Below, piece after piece: positions 241 through 10,264 of a DNA stretch of 29,162 nucleotides (its first letter is position 1; every line of letters begins with the position of its first letter). The notes beneath the pieces were generated by a model. It was given only the letters and a program-made list of their open reading frames with translations. It had not been told where the DNA came from and ran no database searches. The position numbers and the translations under genes were made by a program. This DNA is from a virus (lineage: Duplodnaviria > Heunggongvirae > Uroviricota > Caudoviricetes), in the IMG/VR virus record IMGVR_UViG_2563366805_000006, positions 1 through 29,162 of that record. The stretch is one strand, 5' to 3'.

Positions 241-1221
241 TCAAACCGTTAAACCTCCCTTTAATGGGTTTAACGCTACTGCGTTTTGCAGGTAATCAGG
301 CGCAAGGTGCGCATAGGCCATCGTCTGCTGAATGCTCGCGTGCCCGAGAATCTGCTGCAGCGCAATAATATTGCCCCCGTTCATCATGAAATGGCTTGCG
401 AAGGTATGGCGCAGGATGTGTGTTGCCTGATTGGGTGGAATATCAGGTTTCACTCTGCGTAAAATCCCGCAAAACTTCTCATAGTCAACCTTGAACAATT
501 TAGCGCTGGCCTCCTCTTTAACTTTCTTCTCCAGTTCCTCGGAAATCGGCACAGTTCGCTTTTTGCCGTTTTTTGTTTTCAAAAAGGTAACCCTGCAGCT
601 TGTTATCTGCGCTGGTTTCAGCGTGGCAACTTCCGTCCATCTTCCGCCAGTGCTCAGGCACAAAAGCGCGACCAGCAAGTCATCACCAACCAAAACGCTT
701 AACAGCTTCTCAATTTCTGACTTATCCAGAAATGTCATTTCCGGGTTGGCCTCCGCCAGCGGCGGCAGTCCATGAATCGGATGTTGCCCGGAATACTCAT
801 CCAACTGGATTAGCTTGGTGAACATGCCCGATAAACGGTACATGTCACGATTTATCGTCGCTGCGCTGATGCCATCGCGTAGACGAACAGAGCGGTAATC
901 CATAAGACTTTTTTTATTCAATCTGCTGACCGGCATATCACCCAATCCGCTGATGGTTTTGCGCAAATGCCCTCGCTCTTTTTCTCCGTGTTCGTGATTC
1001 TGGCCGTGATACTTCCACCATGCCTCTAATAGTTCTGACAGGGTGCGGCGGTCTGTTCGCTGGCCTGCCCATTCTTTCTGGCTGGCGTTGGCGATTGTGT
1101 ACCGCTCAAATGCTACAGCCTCAGCTTTTCTTTCAAACTTCCTGCGGATGCGTTTTCCGTCGCGGCCGCGAGGTCTAATGTCCACTTCATAGCGACCATC
1201 ATCGAGCTTCTTAATTGGCAT
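241..1221 (-). CDS. int: Phage integrase, tyrosine recombinase (P2 Int family)
   Basis: 326 aa from MPIKKLDD, with a GGAGGG RBS 8 nt upstream; the longer track ORF start at 1251 has none. C-terminal catalytic signature HILRHTFASH ... GHASIQQTMAYAHL (HxxR and catalytic Tyr). First gene at the prophage end. Confidence 0.93.
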   Translation of the reverse strand: MPIKKLDDGRYEVDIRPRGRDGKRIRRKFERKAEAVAFERYTIANASQKEWAGQRTDRRTLSELLEAWWKYHGQNHEHGEKERGHLRKTISGLGDMPVSRLNKKSLMDYRSVRLRDGISAATINRDMYRLSGMFTKLIQLDEYSGQHPIHGLPPLAEANPEMTFLDKSEIEKLLSVLVGDDLLVALLCLSTGGRWTEVATLKPAQITSCRVTFLKTKNGKKRTVPISEELEKKVKEEASAKLFKVDYEKFCGILRRVKPDIPPNQATHILRHTFASHFMMNGGNIIALQQILGHASIQQTMAYAHLAPDYLQNAVALNPLKGGLTV

Positions 1222-1290
1222 AAGAAAGCCCTCCGGCGCTGTACTCACCATCTTGGTAACAAATGGTGAAAATGTAATGTTTGTAGAGTG

Positions 1291-2968: not shown

Positions 2969-3264
2969 TGTCTCTGATGCAATCCGTATTACTTAATAAC
3001 TGGCTAAAGATTGCGGTTATGAAAAACGGTGAATTATCGCTTGCTGACATTAAGCGCGATAAAGAAACCGGAGCGATGACGGAATCAACAATCGCTATTT
3101 ATTCGAGTGAATTAAACCTCCTGACGGATGTGGTCAATTTGCTTGTGAAACGCGCCGTTTTTCATAAGCAAATCACCACCGTAGATGAATTATCAAAATT
3201 AACTATCGAGCTAACCGGTTACTGCGCCGGTGAGTTTAAAAAACTGAACAGAGAGAGGAGCTAA
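2968..3264 (+). CDS. Hypothetical early protein (P2 orf81 position)
   Basis: 98 aa, AT-rich codon usage, translationally coupled to the upstream ORF. Confidence 0.5.
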   Translation: MSLMQSVLLNNWLKIAVMKNGELSLADIKRDKETGAMTESTIAIYSSELNLLTDVVNLLVKRAVFHKQITTVDELSKLTIELTGYCAGEFKKLNRERS

Positions 3265-3268
3265 ATCA

Positions 3269-3493
3269 ATGCCGGATTATATGGATCACATTCAGGAGCG
3301 ACAGACGGAATCACTGACTCGCCAGATTAACGCCGCTCGGGTGAAACCGTGCGGCGCTGCTGCATTGGTTTGCGAAGAATGTGACGCACCAATCCCTGCC
3401 GACCGCCGTGCGGCATATCCGTCGGCGACACGCTGTGTCTACTGTCAGTCAGCGCTTGAGTCAAAAGCTAAACACTTTCGGGGGCAGGCATGA
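3269..3493 (+). CDS. TraR/DksA-family C4 zinc-finger protein (P2 orf82 position)
   Basis: 74 aa with CxxC-(17)-CxxC: CEECDAPIPADRRAAYPSATRCVYCQ. GAGAGGAG RBS upstream. Confidence 0.65.
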   Translation: MPDYMDHIQERQTESLTRQINAARVKPCGAAALVCEECDAPIPADRRAAYPSATRCVYCQSALESKAKHFRGQA

Positions 3494-3765
3494 GCATTCG
3501 TATCGAGATTGGTGAGCGCTATGTCGTCACAAGTGACCGTTTTCAGTTCATTTTGCAGGAGAAAAAGACCGCCGAAACAGGGAAGAATGCCGGTAAAGAG
3601 TGGCTGGATGTTGTCGGCTATTACCCCAAATTAAACCAGCTCGTTTCCGGTCTGATTCATCACGATATTTTGAGCGGCAGCGCTGTCTCTTTTGAAGCGT
3701 TGAGCACTCAGGTTGAACTGCTAGGTAAGCAGTGTTTACGGGCTTTTGACACAAATGGCCGTTGA
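3490..3765 (+). CDS. Hypothetical early protein (P2 orf83 position)
   Basis: 91 aa, ATGA overlap with the upstream ORF; its end overlaps the A start. Confidence 0.5.
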   Translation: MSIRIEIGERYVVTSDRFQFILQEKKTAETGKNAGKEWLDVVGYYPKLNQLVSGLIHHDILSGSAVSFEALSTQVELLGKQCLRAFDTNGR

Positions 3766-6046
3766 TATTCGGGGGCGTTCTGCCCCTACACCGCCACCAC
3801 CATTTGCAAAAGGCACCGGCAAAGAGTTTGCCGGTGTTTACTCATGGAACGCGCCGCGTGAGGCTATTGGGCGCGAGAGACCCCTTACACGTGACGAGCT
3901 GCGTCAGGTGCAAGGCGTTTTATCCAAAATTGACCGCCTGCCTTACTTTTTAAGTTCTCTGTTTGCCTCGCGTTATGAATATATCAGGCGTAACAAAAGC
4001 CCTGTGCATGGGCTGTATTTCCTCAAGTCGACATTTCTGCGCCGGTTGTGGCCGCGCATTGAGCGGGTTAATCAGCGTAACGAAATGAATAGGGAGGCGT
4101 CGCTGCTGTTTCTTGCTGAAAGTGAGAATTACGCGCGCCTGCCGGGGATGAACGATAAAGAGCTGAAAAAATTTGCGTCTCGTATCGCCTCGCAGCTTTT
4201 CATCATGTACGAGGAGTTAAGCGACGCATGGGCTGAGGCGCACGGTGGCAAAGAGTCGCTTTTTACTGATGAGGCTCAGGCTCACCTGTACGGTCATGTT
4301 GCTGGCGCAGCTCGGGCTTTTAATGTTGCCCCGCTTTTCTGGAAGAAATACCGCAAAGGCCAGATGACAATCCGACAGGCATTTTCCGCCGTAGCTCGCC
4401 TGATTAACGATGAATGGTGGACTAACCAGCTCAAGGCGCAGCGCATGCGCTGGCATGAAGCGCTGCTGATTGCTGCAGGCGAGGTGAATAAAGACCGCTC
4501 GCCGTATGCCAGTAAAAATGCCGTCCGTGATGTACATGCACGCCGTCTGGCAAATCTTGAATACCTGAAATCCTGCGAGCTGGAAAACAAAGTTACCGGC
4601 GAACGTATCGACCTTATCAGCAAAGTGATGGGAAGTATTTCCAATCCTGAAATTCGCCGCATGGAGCTGATGAACACCATCGCGGGGATTGAGCGTTATG
4701 CCGCTGCTGAGGGTGATGTCGGTATGTTTATCACGCTGACTGCACCGTCGAAGTATCACCCGACACGTCAGGTCGGAAAGGGTAAAGATAAGACTGTACA
4801 GCTCAATCATGGCTGGAATGGTGAGGCTTACACCCCGAAGGATGCACAGCGTTACCTTTGCCGTATCTGGAGCCTGATGCGTACCGCTTTCAAAGATAAT
4901 GATTTGCAGGTCTACGGTATGCGTGTTGTCGAACCGCACCACGACGGGACGCCGCACTGGCACATGATGTTGTTTTGCAAGCGCCAGCAGCGCAAAGAAA
5001 TCACCGAAATTATGAGTCGTTATGCTCTCAAAGAGGATGGCGACGAGCGCGGTGCAGCTCGCAACCGCTTTCAGGCTAAACACCTGAACAAAGGCGGTGC
5101 GGCCGGGTACATCGCGAAATACATCGCCAAAAATATCGACGGTTACGCACTTGATGGCGAGCTCGATAAAGATACCGGCAAGCCGCTCAAAGATACCGCC
5201 GCCGCTGTTACTGCATGGGCGTCAACGTGGCGAATACCTCAGTTTAAGCCGATTGGCCTGCCGACGATGGGGGCTTACCGTGAGCTGCGCAAGCTGCCTA
5301 GCGGGGTAAGTATTGCTGATGAGTTTGACGAGCGTGTCGAAGCAACACGCGCCGCGGCTGATGGCGGTGATTTCGACCTGTATATCACCGCTCAGGGCGG
5401 CGCAAATGTCCCGCGCGACGGCCAGACCGTCAGGGTCGCCCGTAGCGTCAGTGATGAGGTTAATGACTACGAGGAAGATATCGAGAGGGTGGTCGGTATT
5501 TACGCGCCTCACCTCGGCGCGCGTCACGTTCACATTACCCGGTCATCAGAATGGCGCATCGTTCCAAAGGTTTTGGCCGTTGAGCCTTTGACCTTAAAAA
5601 GCGGCATCGCCGCGCCTCGGAGTCCTGTCAATAACTGTGGAAAGCTCACCGGCGGTGACGTTCCGGTTATGACCACTACACCGTCTGAGCATGCCGCAGC
5701 GGTGTTAAATCTTGTTGATGACGGGGCTATCGCATGGGATGACCCCGAAGTCGTGACGGCGCTCAAGGGCGCACTAAAACACGACGCGCGGCAGCAAAAT
5801 CGCCAGCAAAGAAGCGGAGAGCCATTAAAACCGCATGACGTTGCCCCATCAGGCAGGCTGACTAAATCCGAACGCGCGCAAATACCGCGTATCCGCTTTG
5901 ACCTTGCGCAGCATGGCATCACCCCGAAGCGCTGGGAGCTTGAGGCGCTGGCGCGTGGTGCGACCGTGACATACGACGGGAAGAGATTCACATATCCGGT
6001 CGCTGATGAGTGGCCGGGGTTTACTGGTATATCTGAATGGGGGTAA
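3755..6046 (+). CDS. A: Replication initiation protein A (HUH rolling-circle endonuclease)
   Basis: 763 aa from MAVDIRG (P2 gpA starts MAV...). HUH motif PHWHMMLF and paired active-site tyrosines YIAKYIAK visible. Near-collinear with P2 gpA. Confidence 0.95.
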   Translation: MAVDIRGRSAPTPPPPFAKGTGKEFAGVYSWNAPREAIGRERPLTRDELRQVQGVLSKIDRLPYFLSSLFASRYEYIRRNKSPVHGLYFLKSTFLRRLWPRIERVNQRNEMNREASLLFLAESENYARLPGMNDKELKKFASRIASQLFIMYEELSDAWAEAHGGKESLFTDEAQAHLYGHVAGAARAFNVAPLFWKKYRKGQMTIRQAFSAVARLINDEWWTNQLKAQRMRWHEALLIAAGEVNKDRSPYASKNAVRDVHARRLANLEYLKSCELENKVTGERIDLISKVMGSISNPEIRRMELMNTIAGIERYAAAEGDVGMFITLTAPSKYHPTRQVGKGKDKTVQLNHGWNGEAYTPKDAQRYLCRIWSLMRTAFKDNDLQVYGMRVVEPHHDGTPHWHMMLFCKRQQRKEITEIMSRYALKEDGDERGAARNRFQAKHLNKGGAAGYIAKYIAKNIDGYALDGELDKDTGKPLKDTAAAVTAWASTWRIPQFKPIGLPTMGAYRELRKLPSGVSIADEFDERVEATRAAADGGDFDLYITAQGGANVPRDGQTVRVARSVSDEVNDYEEDIERVVGIYAPHLGARHVHITRSSEWRIVPKVLAVEPLTLKSGIAAPRSPVNNCGKLTGGDVPVMTTTPSEHAAAVLNLVDDGAIAWDDPEVVTALKGALKHDARQQNRQQRSGEPLKPHDVAPSGRLTKSERAQIPRIRFDLAQHGITPKRWELEALARGATVTYDGKRFTYPVADEWPGFTGISEWG

Positions 6047-6048
6047 TT

Positions 6049-6237
6049 GTGAGAAAAATCTGTGTGATTGTTGGGTGGATTGCTGGGCTGTGGCTTTTCT
6101 TTCTGCTTCTTGGTTGGGCAGGTGAACAAGACCGCAAAGACTGTGAGGAGCGGATAGCAACAGAGCTGAAAACCACGGCTGTTTTTATAAACAATAAGTG
6201 CATGGTGAAGGGGTATGGTCGCTTTGACGGGAGGTGA
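6049..6237 (+). CDS. Small single-pass membrane protein (hypothetical), in the P2 accessory hotspot position
   Basis: About 62 aa from a GTG start (or ATG at 6037 overlapping the A stop). N-terminal hydrophobic helix ICVIVGWIAGLWLFFLLLGWAG followed by a charged tail EQDRKDCEER. No homolog recognised. Confidence 0.4.
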   Translation: MRKICVIVGWIAGLWLFFLLLGWAGEQDRKDCEERIATELKTTAVFINNKCMVKGYGRFDGR

Positions 6238-6345
6238 CCTATCTGACCCGAGCAAACGCCGCCGGTACTGAAACTTGCTTTCAGTGCTGGCGGGGTTGAA
6301 CAACGAGCCCCGCGAGGCGTTAGCCTGCCCCGTAGAGACCGCCCA

Positions 6346-6390
6346 CAACCGGCACTAATAAAGCCGGTTTTATTGTGCCTTTTTCTCGCG
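6346..6390 (+). terminator. Candidate rho-independent terminator after the early/replication operon
   Basis: Imperfect hairpin CACTAATAAA-GCCGG-TTTTATTGTG followed by CCTTTTTC. Confidence 0.4.
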
Positions 6391-6534
6391 ATTTCCCCGT
6401 TTTTTAGCCGTGCATGCAACAGGTGCATGGTTTTGCATGCGTCGTGGTTGCCAGTTCTGGCCGTGCGCCGTCAGTGCTGGCGCGGATCCAGAGTGGTCAT
6501 GCAACTGCATTAAAACCGACCCATAAAGCGGGCA

Positions 6535-6553
6535 GGCGTGGCGGGGAAAGCAT
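6535..6553. other. cos: cos site (19-nt cohesive-end sequence, 186-type)
   Basis: GGCGTGGCGGGGAAAGCAT matches the 186 cohesive end from memory (P2: GGCGAGGCGGGGAAAGCAC). Lies between A and Q, as in P2-family genomes. Confidence 0.6.
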
Positions 6554-6693
6554 TGCGCGCCAGCGGTGGTGCGTAATAATAAAAATTATCGTCTGAGCGC
6601 GTCGTGATGGCGCTGTCGTGGTTGCTGTCGGCTCGTTGGTGGTCTGGCGTGGTCGTGCGCGCGTGGCGCGTCTGAGGCGTGATGGTTTCGGGG

Positions 6694-6720
6694 TATGAAA
6701 AAGCCGCCATGCTGGCGGCT
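6694..6720 (-). terminator. Rho-independent terminator of the leftward P/Q packaging operon
   Basis: On the minus strand, hairpin AGCCGCCA-GCA-TGGCGGCT followed by TTTTTC, 10 nt downstream of the Q stop. Confidence 0.55.
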
Positions 6721-6729
6721 TGAGGGGGA

Positions 6730-7752
6730 TTATTCCGGGTTGTCGAGGGTGTACTCTTTGAACCTGATGACCTCCATGCCGAGCCAGTCGTTTACTTCCC
6801 TGAATCTGTCCTGTAGAGGCGACAGCTCGTTACGCACAAATACCTTTGCCACCTTCTCAACGTCACCAAGTGAGCCGATATTCTCGGGCTTACCACCCAT
6901 AAGCTGGAACGGCACGCGGTGCGCGTCCATCAGGTCGGCGGCGCTGGCTTTCTTAATGTTGAAAAAGTCATCCTTTGTGGCGACCTCGCTCAGGGGCACG
7001 ATTTTGATGCCGTCCGGTTTTCCGCCGGGAGCGTAGAAAAACAGGTTCTTAAAGTTGCCGAGCCCTTTCGAGTTTCGCATCGCCTCGCGCAGCGATTCGA
7101 CGTCGGTCGCGCTCTGCGCCGGGTCGGTCACATACATGATGTAACCCGCATGCGCGCCGTTCTGGTAATACTTGCGGCGGAACAGCGTCGCGGATTCATT
7201 CAGCCAGGCAGAATTAAGCGCGCTGAGATATTCGGGCAGGCCGTAAATCTCCTGATTAATATCGGGCTCCAGCAGGTGAAACACGGTATCAGGCGCGAAC
7301 TCATGCGGCAGCGTGAAGTTTTCCACAAACCAGAATATAGAATCGTCGACCCCGCGCCGGGTGTATTTGGCCGGTGAGGCCAGCAGCTTGATTAACTGGC
7401 CAGTGACGCTGTGGCGCTGCTCAAGAAAGGCGTTGCCGAATACCAGATAGTCGAGCGCAAAGCGGCTGAAATCCTGACGGGACAGCAACGGGTGCGGAAT
7501 GTAGGTGCTCGCGAGCACGTTGCGCTTAACGTAAATCGGTGAACTGTGATGTACAGCAGAGCGCAGGCTCTTTGCCAGCCCGGAGAAGCTGACCGGCGGC
7601 TCGTACCACTTGCCGTTACTGATGCACTCGACGTAATCCAGAATGTCGCGCTTATCGAGTACCGGCACCGGCTCGCCGAAGGTGAACGCCTCCATTTTTT
7701 GTGGGGCGCTGGCGGTCGTGGTGACTGTTTTGCGTGGCTTGCGCTTGCTCAT
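6730..7752 (-). CDS. Q: Portal protein Q
   Basis: 340 aa, collinear with P2 gpQ. Adjacent to cos and leftward, as in P2. Confidence 0.95.
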   Translation of the reverse strand: MSKRKPRKTVTTTASAPQKMEAFTFGEPVPVLDKRDILDYVECISNGKWYEPPVSFSGLAKSLRSAVHHSSPIYVKRNVLASTYIPHPLLSRQDFSRFALDYLVFGNAFLEQRHSVTGQLIKLLASPAKYTRRGVDDSIFWFVENFTLPHEFAPDTVFHLLEPDINQEIYGLPEYLSALNSAWLNESATLFRRKYYQNGAHAGYIMYVTDPAQSATDVESLREAMRNSKGLGNFKNLFFYAPGGKPDGIKIVPLSEVATKDDFFNIKKASAADLMDAHRVPFQLMGGKPENIGSLGDVEKVAKVFVRNELSPLQDRFREVNDWLGMEVIRFKEYTLDNPE

Positions 7753-8495
7753 GCTGCCACCTCACCCGCTGCAACAGCGAAAGACCAGTCGCAGCCAAAC
7801 AGTAGACGATAATCATCGTCGCTGTATTCACGTTTAATTTCCTCAGGCGCAAAGAGATTGCACCCGCGCTGACATGCTGCATCCAGAGTGACCGACTGAC
7901 GCCAGACACCATCAGTGCAAAATACGCTGTCGCCGGTATTGATTCGCGGTGACGGTCGGCGCTTGCGAGTTGTGCCGTTCCATACCCTGAATGCTGCGTA
8001 GCTGTCTGATGGTGTGGTGAACATCGTCAGGCTGTGGCGTTTATGGCAGGCGATAGCCGCTGCGACTTTTGCCGCTCTTAGCGGGTTATTGAACCATCCG
8101 AACTCATCAAGGTAGACGTTACCAGCCAGCGCGGCGCAATGGGATTCCTCGCCGACAAAGCTGATAACCGCCCCGCCGTCGAGCTGCAGGCTGTGGCCGT
8201 TACTCGTCAGGCGGACGCCGACGCGCGCCGAAAGGTTGTTCATGTACATCAGCGCCACGCGCGCATGCTCAACGGTGTGAGCAAACCAGACCTGATTATC
8301 GCCCGTTGTCAGCGCATCGAGCAGCGCCTCGCGACTAAAGAGCTGCGTTGCGCCAATCTGGCGCGATTTGGTGATGATGCGGTCGATATTGAGTTTCCCG
8401 ACACGCAACCATGTTGCCTGATAGTCAAAGCTGTCATTGTGCAGAATATCGGCCATTGCCTGAATCTGGCTTTGTGAGAAAACGTTATTTTTCAT
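7749..8495 (-). CDS. Terminase large-subunit ATPase-core paralogue lacking the N-terminal region and the nuclease domain (extra gene between Q and P)
   Basis: 248 aa. Aligns to residues about 124-372 of the adjacent gpP. Deviant Walker A KSRQIGAT, Walker B YLDE (P: YVDE) and coupling motif TMFTTPS (P: TYFSTPS) are retained. Start overlaps the P stop (TAATG) and stop overlaps the Q start (ATGA). Confidence 0.8.
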   Translation of the reverse strand: MKNNVFSQSQIQAMADILHNDSFDYQATWLRVGKLNIDRIITKSRQIGATQLFSREALLDALTTGDNQVWFAHTVEHARVALMYMNNLSARVGVRLTSNGHSLQLDGGAVISFVGEESHCAALAGNVYLDEFGWFNNPLRAAKVAAAIACHKRHSLTMFTTPSDSYAAFRVWNGTTRKRRPSPRINTGDSVFCTDGVWRQSVTLDAACQRGCNLFAPEEIKREYSDDDYRLLFGCDWSFAVAAGEVAA

Positions 8496-10264
8496 TAATT
8501 AAACTCCAGAATGGATTTAGGCTGCATGCCGCTACCGGCGGAAAGTGGTTCGTTTAACAGGGCGTGCATGGTCGCCCATGCGATATCGGCGTGACTGGCT
8601 TCCTCGGTGCGGCTGGCCTCGTAGGTAGCGCTGCGCCCGCTACTGGTCATGGTTTTGCGGATGGACATAAACGACTGCGTGACGTCGGTCGCCCCGGCGT
8701 CGTACTCCAGACAGCCACGGCGAATGGTGTCTTTTGCCTTGAGCACCATCGCGGTTTTCATCTCAGGCGTGTAACGGATGCCGCGTGCCGCCGGGTAGAA
8801 TGAGCGCACCAACTGGAACACGCCGAGACCGAGGCCGGTTGCGTCAATGCCGATGTATTCGACGTTGTATTTCTCGGTCAGTTTGCGGATGCCCTCGGCC
8901 TGCGCGGCAAAGTCCATGCCTTTCCACTGGTGGCGCTCCAGCATGCGGAACTTGCCACCCGAGACCACCGGCGGCGCGAGCACGACGCACCCGGCGCTGT
9001 CGCCGGTGTGTGACGGGTCGTAGCCAATCCAGACAGGACGCGAGCCGAACGGATGGTCGGCGAACGGGGCGAAGTCCTCCCATTCTTCCATCACGTCGAC
9101 CATGCAGCGCTGCAGCTCCTCGAACGGGAATACCGACGCTTTATCGTCGACAAACTCGCACATAAACAGGTTATTAAAGTCCTCATCACTGTTTTCGCGT
9201 TTGAGCTGGTCGAGGTCGAACAGGGTGCAGCCACCGGCAAGGGCATCCTCAATGGTGACAATCTGCCGCCACTGGCCATCGTCGCAGAGCTGGCCACCGG
9301 CGAGCGCGCTGTGACTGATGTCGATTTCGATGCGGTCGGCAATCCGGCTCCGCCCCTTGTTGAACAGCTCGCCAGACCAGAAGGGGTAAGCGCCGTGCGC
9401 CAGCGTGGAAGGTGTCGAAAAGTAGGTTGAGCGCAGGTGCTTCTGCGAGGCCATGCCCGACGCGACTTTGCGCAGCTTCTGAAAATTCGGGATCCAGAAT
9501 ATTTCATCGACATACAGGTCGCCGTTATGGCTCTGCGCGGTGTTGGAATTGGTACCGAGAAAAATCAGCTTTGCGCCGTTGTTGCCGATGACAATCGGGT
9601 CGCCGGTCAGGTCGACGTCGACCAGCCGCGCAAACTGGATGATGTACTCGCGGAACACGTAAGCCTGAGTTTTACTGGCCGACAGAAATATCTGGTTGTG
9701 GCCGGTCTTGAGTGCGCGCAGCAGCGCCTCGCGGGAGAAATAGAACGTCGCGCCAATCTGGCGGGATTTGAGAATGTCGCGAATACGGTGCGCCAGCCCT
9801 GCGCGGTACCACTGCAACTGGTACTCGAAAGACTGGTCGAAAAATAGTTCCTCCAGTTTCCCGATAGCCTCGTCGCTGAAAAAGTTCTTTTTCGGCTTCT
9901 TACGCTCACCCTTGTTACGGTTGGCGACATTGGGGTTAAGGTCGACCTCGTTGCCGGTTTGGCTGTAGCGGTTAACGCGCGCCAGTCGCTCAATCTGTCG
10001 CCCGAGCAGGTCAATCTCTTTGAAGTCGCCGCCTGACTTTTGCGGCTTGGCGATGAGCTGAATCAGCCTGGCCTCAAGGCTGCTTTCGACGCGGGAAATC
10101 GGTGCGATGCCGTCCCAGCCGTCGCGCTGCTTCCAGCTCTGCACGGTCGGGCGCTTAACCTGCAGCATTTCGGCAATCTGTGGCACGGAAAAACCCTGCC
10201 AGTAAAGCAGCGATGCCTGCCGTCGCGGGTCATGCAACAAGGTTGTATCGGTGGAAATGGTCAT
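8495..10264 (-). CDS. P: Terminase large subunit P (ATPase plus nuclease)
   Basis: 589 aa (P2 gpP 590). ATPase motifs KSRQIGAT / LYVDE / TYFSTPS, then a C-terminal RNaseH-like nuclease region (VWIGYDPSHTGDSAG ... GIDATGLG ... HADIAWATMHAL). Confidence 0.95.
   Translation of the reverse strand: MTISTDTTLLHDPRRQASLLYWQGFSVPQIAEMLQVKRPTVQSWKQRDGWDGIAPISRVESSLEARLIQLIAKPQKSGGDFKEIDLLGRQIERLARVNRYSQTGNEVDLNPNVANRNKGERKKPKKNFFSDEAIGKLEELFFDQSFEYQLQWYRAGLAHRIRDILKSRQIGATFYFSREALLRALKTGHNQIFLSASKTQAYVFREYIIQFARLVDVDLTGDPIVIGNNGAKLIFLGTNSNTAQSHNGDLYVDEIFWIPNFQKLRKVASGMASQKHLRSTYFSTPSTLAHGAYPFWSGELFNKGRSRIADRIEIDISHSALAGGQLCDDGQWRQIVTIEDALAGGCTLFDLDQLKRENSDEDFNNLFMCEFVDDKASVFPFEELQRCMVDVMEEWEDFAPFADHPFGSRPVWIGYDPSHTGDSAGCVVLAPPVVSGGKFRMLERHQWKGMDFAAQAEGIRKLTEKYNVEYIGIDATGLGLGVFQLVRSFYPAARGIRYTPEMKTAMVLKAKDTIRRGCLEYDAGATDVTQSFMSIRKTMTSSGRSATYEASRTEEASHADIAWATMHALLNEPLSAGSGMQPKSILEFN

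Follow-up and report, generated by a model that had tools for sequence, protein, structure and literature searches.

The window analysed here, the 29,162 nucleotides of IMG/VR virus record IMGVR_UViG_2563366805_000006 (Caudoviricetes), is a nearly complete prophage of the P2/186 type. Its genes are arranged as integrase, a repressor-sized open reading frame (ORF), a rightward early operon in which replication gene A (gpA) is last, the cohesive-end site cos, portal gene Q, terminase gene P, and capsid and tail genes. Immediately behind gpA is a small ORF, here called ORF62, which looks like the next and last gene in the gpA transcription unit. The interval between gpA and gpQ in P2-like phages is a documented hotspot for accessory and anti-phage genes (PMC9122126). 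The original prediction took ORF62 to be an accessory membrane protein and the only cargo-like gene at this hotspot, and it is indeed the sole gene between gpA and the terminator and cos (Table 1).

Two starts can be read for ORF62, in agreement with the 62 to 66 amino acids originally predicted. The ATG at position 6037, from which the frame still overlaps the end of gpA (stop codon TAA, 6044-6046), gives 66 amino acids, and an in-frame GTG at 6049, 2 nucleotides past that stop, gives 62; the ORF ends at TGA 6235-6237. The GTG is the better supported start in comparisons among homologues, because intact homologues have 52 to 73 amino acids (most have 56 to 62) and mostly begin with M-K or M-R, and because the copy in Escherichia coli CAVP776 has ACG in place of the ATG, yet keeps the GTG. 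A suitably spaced Shine-Dalgarno sequence precedes every homologue, and is of the GGAGG or GAGG type in homologues from other phages. In the window, the Shine-Dalgarno-like site lies inside the last gpA codons, and translation of ORF62 may therefore be coupled to that of gpA.

The length of ORF62 is not significant in itself, since 55 ORFs of at least 30 amino acids overlap positions 3000-9000 of the window, and the case for coding is made by comparison of homologues. Synonymous change is close to saturation among 21 homologous coding sequences aligned without gaps (mean proportion of differing synonymous sites, pS, 0.67). In codons 25-62 the corresponding nonsynonymous proportion, pN, is 0.10, and the median ratio of nonsynonymous to synonymous change (dN/dS) is 0.07, compared with a dN/dS of 0.39 in codons 2-24. 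Within codons 25-62, variation is found at 37/38 third positions, 13/38 first positions and 13/38 second positions. Among the six frames, the ORF62 frame alone is free of stops in all 21 homologues. As alternative genes we examined two antisense ORFs, 5530..6348 and 6021..6428, and rejected both, since they have no Pfam match and their frames are broken in most homologues. ORFs of similar size are common in the window, and the Prokaryotic Genome Annotation Pipeline (PGAP) left the intact copy in E. coli CAVP776 unannotated, as might be expected of a chance ORF. However, purifying selection, frame-specific conservation, the Shine-Dalgarno sites and the presence of homologues in unrelated phages refute that explanation, whose probability we consider negligible. 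By these comparative measures, ORF62 is a genuine gene under strong purifying selection.

The ORF62 protein (MRKICVIVGWIAGLWLFFLLLGWAGEQDRKDCEERIATELKTTAVFINNKCMVKGYGRFDGR) matches phrog_14089, a 59-position PHROGs family of unknown function (hmmscan E-value 1.4e-19, 70.7 bits; profile positions 4-59 aligned to residues 11-66 of the 66-amino-acid form). This was the only PHROGs match at E-values up to 1, and no annotated exclusion family was among the matches. Judged by this profile, ORF62 is a new, previously unannotated member of an existing uncharacterised family. Scans of five family members against Pfam, NCBIfam and PADLOC (the last at E-values up to 1) yielded nothing meaningful, and neither PHROGs nor PADLOC gave a match to a known defence family or to a known superinfection-exclusion family, among them T4 Imm/Sp, P22 SieA/SieB, HK97 gp15, Cor/Llp and P1 Sim. 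A profile search of the PDB produced only chance matches (E-values above 0.8), a Foldseek comparison of our first AlphaFold2 (AF2) model with BFVD retrieved only the protein's own family, such as the homologue in Shigella phage SGF2, and full-text literature searches for the motif CMVKGYG and for phiEco32 gp46, a homologue described below, found nothing relevant. Relatives were found as 8 clusters among 5.8 billion proteins, as 19 representatives among 1.8 billion, and at 35 loci in IMG/VR. A search of species-representative genomes gave three loci, in Erwinia dacicola, Yersinia alsatica and Lelliottia nimipressuralis. Nine contigs encode exactly the window protein in the same arrangement, and the cluster closest to it comes from Salmonella enterica.

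Residues 4-25 of the product form an uncharged run of 22 residues, with a best 19-residue Kyte-Doolittle mean of 2.52 and a summed biological-scale free energy of about -3 kcal/mol (with the published scale values), and AF2 models the segment as a helix. These features bear out the prediction of a small single-pass membrane protein. M-R-K stands before the segment and G-E-Q-D-R-K-D-C-E-E-R after it, and, except for W10, the segment is poorly conserved among relatives. What follows had been described as a charged C-terminal tail. The charge is real, but the region is a conserved domain (dN/dS 0.07) and not a loose tail. In the temperate-phage group the last 37 residues are nearly fixed (ESDRKDCEERIAKELNTTAVYINGHCMVKGYGRxDGR). 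The general layout of the family is an N-terminal hydrophobic helix and a C-x(18-19)-C domain that ends in K-G-[YW]-G. When 29 diverse members, with identities as low as about 30%, are aligned, no column other than C32 and C51 is invariant, and G55 comes close. In an AF2 model built with 23 sequences (mean pLDDT 77.7), a helix spanning residues 2-40 runs out of the membrane and is followed by strands at 44-47 and 50-53, with C32 on the juxtamembrane part of the helix and C51 on the second strand. The first AF2 run had a mean pLDDT of 70.1 and the same topology.

We infer that the product is a bitopic inner-membrane protein with its N terminus in the cytoplasm, its C terminus outside, and a disulfide-stapled periplasmic domain, because the N-terminal tail is basic, the residues just past the membrane segment are acidic, and the invariant cysteine pair is not accompanied by other metal ligands. 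Across the family, the N-terminal tail contains a median of two Lys or Arg within 2 to 6 residues, and acidic residues (G-E-S/Q-D) come directly after the membrane segment. Disulfides form in the periplasm in these bacteria, by the DsbA/DsbB pathway. A lipoprotein reading was rejected, as the sequence lacks a lipobox and Cys5 is not a conserved residue.

In a variant of this interpretation, the N-terminal segment would act as a cleavable Sec signal peptide and the active product would be a free periplasmic peptide of ~38 residues (beginning GEQDRKDC). Most members have a basic n-region (M-R-K or M-K-x-x-x-R), and in roughly 24 of 28 close relatives, as read by eye from the alignment, a small residue at -3 and an alanine at -1 precede G-E, D-E or S-E (for example, G-W-A, A-W-A, V-W-A, S-L-A and C-F-A). 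However, the uncharged run is 22 residues long in the window protein, with a family median of 19, and extends to the putative -1 position with no polar c-region, whereas established rules give h-regions of 7 to 15 residues. Moreover, distant members lack the -3/-1 motif (F-I-A|R, G-W-R-L-E-E and E-M-I-G-D at the corresponding place). Because the hydrophobic run has the length of an anchor and no c-region, and because distant members lack the motif, we consider cleavage unlikely.

The opposite orientation, with the N terminus outside, would put the cysteine-pair domain in the cytoplasm, where it could tether, for example, the replication machinery to the membrane. The family always adjoins replication modules (gpA, a DnaB-type helicase or a DNA polymerase), and there are slightly more Lys and Arg on the C-terminal flank than in the N-terminal tail. 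Yet these replication modules are mutually unrelated, which makes a common phage partner unlikely, and the position at the end of an early operon serves generally as an accessory slot, as does the nin region of lambdoid phages. In addition, the net charge of the domain is about zero with an acidic flank next to the membrane, and an invariant cysteine pair with no other ligands is more readily explained by a disulfide than by a metal site in the cytoplasm. We therefore regard reversed topology as very improbable, and retain the orientation with a periplasmic domain.

Table 1. Features of the window around ORF62, with the evidence for each
Feature	Position	Strand	Evidence
ORF62 coding sequence	6049..6237	+	62 amino acids from GTG 6049; phrog_14089, 1.4e-19; purifying selection; sole frame open in all homologues
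Shine-Dalgarno-like GGGGG, 5 nucleotides upstream of the GTG, within the last gpA codons	6039..6043	+	Sequence reading
Predicted transmembrane/signal-anchor segment, codons 4-25	6058..6123	+	Kyte-Doolittle; uncharged run; AF2 helix
Conserved C-terminal domain, codons 26-62 (predicted juxtamembrane helix and beta-hairpin)	6124..6234	+	dN/dS 0.07; AF2
Invariant Cys32 (TGT)	6142-6144	+	Alignment
Invariant Cys51 (TGC)	6199-6201	+	Alignment
Replication gene A (gpA, rolling-circle nicking endonuclease)	3746..6046	+	PF05840 Phage_GPA, 3.6e-116; phrog_91
15-bp hairpin opening the block common with phage 186; right edge of the variable segment	6259..6293	+	Same sequence behind orf97 in 186
Predicted intrinsic terminator, AACCGGC...GCCGGTT and T-rich tract; counterpart of 186 t95b	6347..6384	+	186 annotation "t95b; p95 transcript terminator" on homologous sequence; fold
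cos cohesive-end sequence, GGCGTGGCGGGGAAAGCAT	6535..6553	+	One exact match in the window
Portal gene Q, second anchor of the gpA-gpQ hotspot	6730..7752	-	phrog_68, 1.6e-170; PF04860
Terminase gene P	8495..10264	-	
Integrase gene	241..1251	-	

Homologues of ORF62 are found in phages of very different types. Only about ten of the loci retrieved come from P2-like elements, with the homologue right after gpA, and the rest belong to unrelated phages. In lambdoid-type elements, the gene follows a DnaB-type helicase and a methyltransferase gene, or is directly upstream of NinB. In temperate elements that encode a family-A DNA polymerase, a helicase and an integrase, it is found between the polymerase and helicase genes. 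Another element has a distant gpA downstream of the homologue. A tblastn search of isolated phages detected 73 matching records, 66 of which are Escherichia phages, and the virulent genus Kuravirus accounts for dozens of these (phiEco32, NJ01, SU10 and several BASEL phages among them). The phiEco32 homologue, gp46 (phi32_46; MKKIILWALGIALFLYLIDIGGDASREDCEVRLSQEFKSETKWVNGRCYVKDWGRTSR), is encoded between DNA polymerase gp53 and sigma factor gp36, in a gene cluster described as the middle expression class of that phage (PMC8948821). It shares with ORF62 its length, the transmembrane segment, the two cysteines and a K-x-W/Y-G motif, although the Kuravirus copies are only about 35-43% identical to ORF62 and reside in a virulent podovirus. 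In all contexts the homologue is co-oriented with replication genes and tightly packed against them, and no gene family in the neighbourhood was found to be shared between contexts.

One temperate element with a PolA-type polymerase (L016) also contains a BstA abortive-infection gene (4276..5202, minus strand; phrog_6287, 1e-104). This gene is located about 275 nucleotides downstream of the ORF62 homologue, on the opposite strand and with one small ORF between them, so that the homologue is in an accessory-gene slot in that element also.

These arrangements bear on when ORF62 is expressed. In the window, ORF62 has the appearance of a final cistron in the early (replication) operon, and not of an independently expressed cassette, because its GTG is 2 nucleotides past the gpA stop, a simple consensus scan of positions 5400-6800 on both strands detected no sigma-70-like promoter, and a terminator lies downstream. 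This terminator, predicted from its homology to the annotated 186 terminator and from its fold, closes the early transcript. Since homologues reside in early or middle lytic operons, including those of virulent phages, the gene appears to serve lytic growth and not the lysogen, and we infer that ORF62 is expressed in the lytic phase.

The surroundings of ORF62 resemble those in P2 and 186. The 19-nucleotide cos sequence is identical to the annotated P2 cosR (GGCGAGGCGGGGAAAGCAC) at 17/19 bases, and the upstream context is also alike. A megablast match to 186 begins at window position 6253, and the region 6235-6385 has a predicted fold of -54.5 kcal/mol (z -3.2). Relative to 186, the variable segment extends from 6047 to about 6256, and ORF62 fills nearly all of it. 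The same slot contains tum and orf97 in 186, and orf91 (DUF3850), tin and old in P2. ORF62 shares with these genes the slot between gpA and cos and, as in 186, the hairpin at the right-hand boundary. It differs from them in that it has no sequence kinship to them, has no detected promoter of its own and appears to be co-transcribed with gpA, and in that its family also occurs outside hotspots in other phages. Homology to P2 Orf91, which was a proposed check on the original prediction, was rejected (hhalign probability 0.2%, and no Pfam match), as was homology to 186 Orf97 (hhalign probability 2.5%). In these comparisons ORF62 is not a conserved ORF of the P2 backbone.

The hairpin at 6259-6293, which is conserved in 186 and lies just to the right of the variable cargo, may mark the hotspot's recombination boundary, or its role may be to stabilise the early transcript at its 3' end. 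In the prophage of E. coli 600029 (L003), whose gpA and Q are 97% and 99% identical to those of the window, the equivalent of positions 6047..6256 (3150..3562 of that locus) contains two other small ORFs of 58 and 78 amino acids, annotated as hypothetical. The occurrence of different small ORFs in the slot shows cassette exchange of very small genes at the gpA-cos junction.

ORF62 was predicted to be accessory, and this holds. It is absent from P2 and from 186, and is rare in P2-like prophages of E. coli. The flanks are matched in 223 complete E. coli genomes, of which one (CAVP776) has an intact ORF, and in a few the match is confined to the left part of the query. The latter represent a separate P2-like lineage in which every member examined carries a decaying ORF62; the copies checked are in E. 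coli FDAARGOS_1286 and Res13-Lact-EA06-22, in phage genome OU784746, and in IMG/VR contigs L011, L012, L014 and L015. The changes in these pseudogenes consist of a stop codon in place of W10, together with C32S, T42I, R58C and D60E at otherwise invariant sites. Given this lineage and the absence from P2 and 186, ORF62 is an accessory, dispensable gene. Those pseudogene-bearing members that are annotated (OU784746, L051 and L052) have a gene for a hypothetical protein of 311 amino acids, with no Pfam domain, just downstream in the hotspot.

As dispensable cargo of an anti-phage hotspot (PMC9122126), ORF62 could be expressed from the prophage and guard the lysogen by superinfection exclusion or another defence, as do tin and old of P2. 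The annotation of 186 orf97, in the same slot, states that its "expression from plasmid blocks 186 infection", which agrees with such a role. However, P2 tin and old are on the opposite strand and have their own mapped transcript starts, whereas ORF62 is contiguous with gpA on the same strand and has no detected promoter. None of the five family members scanned matches PADLOC, homologues are mostly inside early operons and outside hotspots, and the virulent Kuravirus phages have no lysogen to protect. The original prediction is thus borne out only in part; the view of ORF62 as prophage-expressed cargo is probably incorrect, and protection of the lysogen seems improbable to us.

The suggestion that ORF62 is a toxin-like factor fares no better. 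A membrane-damaging peptide of the Hok/Gef or holin type would have the same gross layout, in that Hok and Gef have about 50-60 amino acids, an N-terminal transmembrane helix and a periplasmic cysteine, and there is a local likeness between R-K-D-C-E-V/E-R in the ORF62 family and R-K-D-L-C-E-V-R in Hok, Gef and RelF. Nevertheless, five members have no match to PF01848 at E-values up to 10, in a test in which Hok, Gef and RelF scored 1e-21 to 1e-24, and hhalign against Hok/Gef gives a probability of 6.7% over 15 columns. No Rfam family, Sok-type or other, was detected at E-values up to 1 in positions 5800-6800, and no mok/sok-type regulation was found; unlike Hok/Gef genes with their mok-type leader control, ORF62 follows gpA directly, with its Shine-Dalgarno site inside gpA. 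ORF62 also has a second invariant cysteine and a longer domain. Furthermore, a dN/dS of 0.39 in the membrane segment versus 0.07 in the domain on the periplasmic side is the reverse of what is expected of a pore-former, and the family is never in a lysis cassette among the contexts examined. Toxicity of this kind is, in our estimation, scarcely probable. A constrained C-terminal domain on a membrane segment that is merely an anchor suggests specific binding and not membrane damage.

We thus favour, if by little more than an even chance, an interpretation in which ORF62 is a lytic-phase bitopic membrane protein whose disulfide-held periplasmic domain binds a conserved host envelope component. 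ORF62 would be translated directly after gpA during lytic development. The short basic N terminus (M-R-K) would stay in the cytoplasm, residues 4-25 would cross the membrane as an anchor that is probably uncleaved, and the 37-residue C-terminal domain would be in the periplasm, where the beta-hairpin would fold back on the juxtamembrane helix and be held by a C32-C51 disulfide. As the domain is nearly unchanged in phages that share nothing else, and as no neighbour is shared between contexts, its partner would most likely be a conserved host component, unless the domain acts alone. Such a component would most probably belong to the envelope of Enterobacterales and be accessible from the periplasmic side of the inner membrane.

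The most likely benefit to the phage would be that the envelope of the infected cell is protected or taken over, for example by blocking genome entry of a superinfecting phage or attack on the cell wall. Superinfection exclusion and envelope protection are exemplified by T4 Imm, T4 Sp and T5 Llp, and T4 Sp consists of an N-terminal anchor and a periplasmic domain. Like ORF62, T4 Sp and Imm are small, dispensable inner-membrane proteins made early in lytic growth that act at the interface of membrane and periplasm; unlike ORF62, they are much larger and do not have its cysteine pair, and the PHROGs scan at E-values up to 1 detects no sequence similarity. We tentatively place exclusion or envelope protection first among possible roles, because these are the best-known roles of dispensable early phage proteins of the inner membrane and periplasm, although we think such an assignment less likely than not to be correct. 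The superinfection exclusion suggested by the original prediction is still a live hypothesis by this analogy and, if true, would more likely operate during lytic growth.

Second in our ranking, and ahead of toxin-like activity, is modulation of host defence or signalling. The periplasmic domain might inhibit a membrane-bound defence or stress sensor, as MgrB and SafA act on PhoQ, or an abortive-infection effector, and thereby secure lytic growth. MgrB and SafA of E. coli resemble ORF62 in having a single transmembrane helix with the N terminus inside, a short periplasmic region and functionally important cysteines; they differ in that ORF62 is phage-borne. Early and middle lytic operons of temperate and virulent phages are the typical place of anti-defence and takeover genes, and the early genes of phiEco32 have been described as likely host takeover genes (PMC8948821). 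However, ORF62 has no sequence similarity to MgrB, to SafA or to any Pfam family; the proposal is purely analogical and we consider it rather improbable.

Several points weigh against the preferred interpretation, a periplasmic domain made in the lytic phase and bound to a host envelope component. The consensus scan may miss a weak or non-sigma-70 promoter inside gpA. There are three Lys or Arg in the 15 residues past the membrane segment versus two in the N-terminal tail, so a plain positive-inside count does not by itself decide the orientation. One natural variant (P0008) has a tyrosine at the position of C51. Finally, ORF62 has no similarity to any protein of known function in Pfam, NCBIfam, PADLOC, PHROGs, PDB or BFVD, and the proposed role is drawn from likeness to proteins of the T4 Imm/Sp type.

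Two further ORFs are found in or near the hotspot. A candidate gene of 66 amino acids with no Pfam match extends across cos on the minus strand (6510..6710) and ends just upstream of Q. PGAP annotates it as hypothetical in E. coli 600029, and it is called in one metagenome contig (L048). Between portal gene Q and terminase gene P is an ORF of 248 amino acids (7749..8495, minus strand), whose start and stop overlap both neighbours. This ORF (PF03237, 2e-22; phrog_3746, 7e-122) encodes a stand-alone paralogue of the P ATPase domain, with 38% identity to P residues 125-371. The Walker-type motif KSRQIGAT is retained, and the N-terminal helix-turn-helix and C-terminal nuclease domains of P are absent. 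The ORF is present in relatives L003 and L046-L048 and absent from L002 (E. coli CAVP776) and L045, and with this patchy distribution it behaves like a second cargo slot. Its product might interfere with packaging or with satellites.

More broadly, ORF62 and phiEco32 gp46 could represent an unrecognised class of lytic-phase periplasmic effectors, in which a disulfide-stapled helix-hairpin of ~37 residues on a membrane anchor is exchanged among unrelated temperate and virulent enterobacterial phages, and has a single conserved envelope protein of the host as its binding target, so as to keep out competitors, disable a membrane-based defence or reprogramme the envelope. We put this forward as a conjecture that is plausible but has somewhat less than an even chance of being right. 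The family is unusual in that it spans the divide between temperate and virulent phages, places very strong constraint on a tiny domain on the periplasmic side, and has no partner gene. Small phage membrane proteins are systematically under-annotated, and the omission of ORF62 by PGAP in E. coli CAVP776 is a case in point. A gene in the gpA-gpQ "defence hotspot" does not have to be defence cargo expressed from the prophage, and here the slot appears to hold an extension of the early lytic operon. ORF62 is a tractable single-gene candidate for finding an envelope target that may be relevant to many enterobacterial phages.

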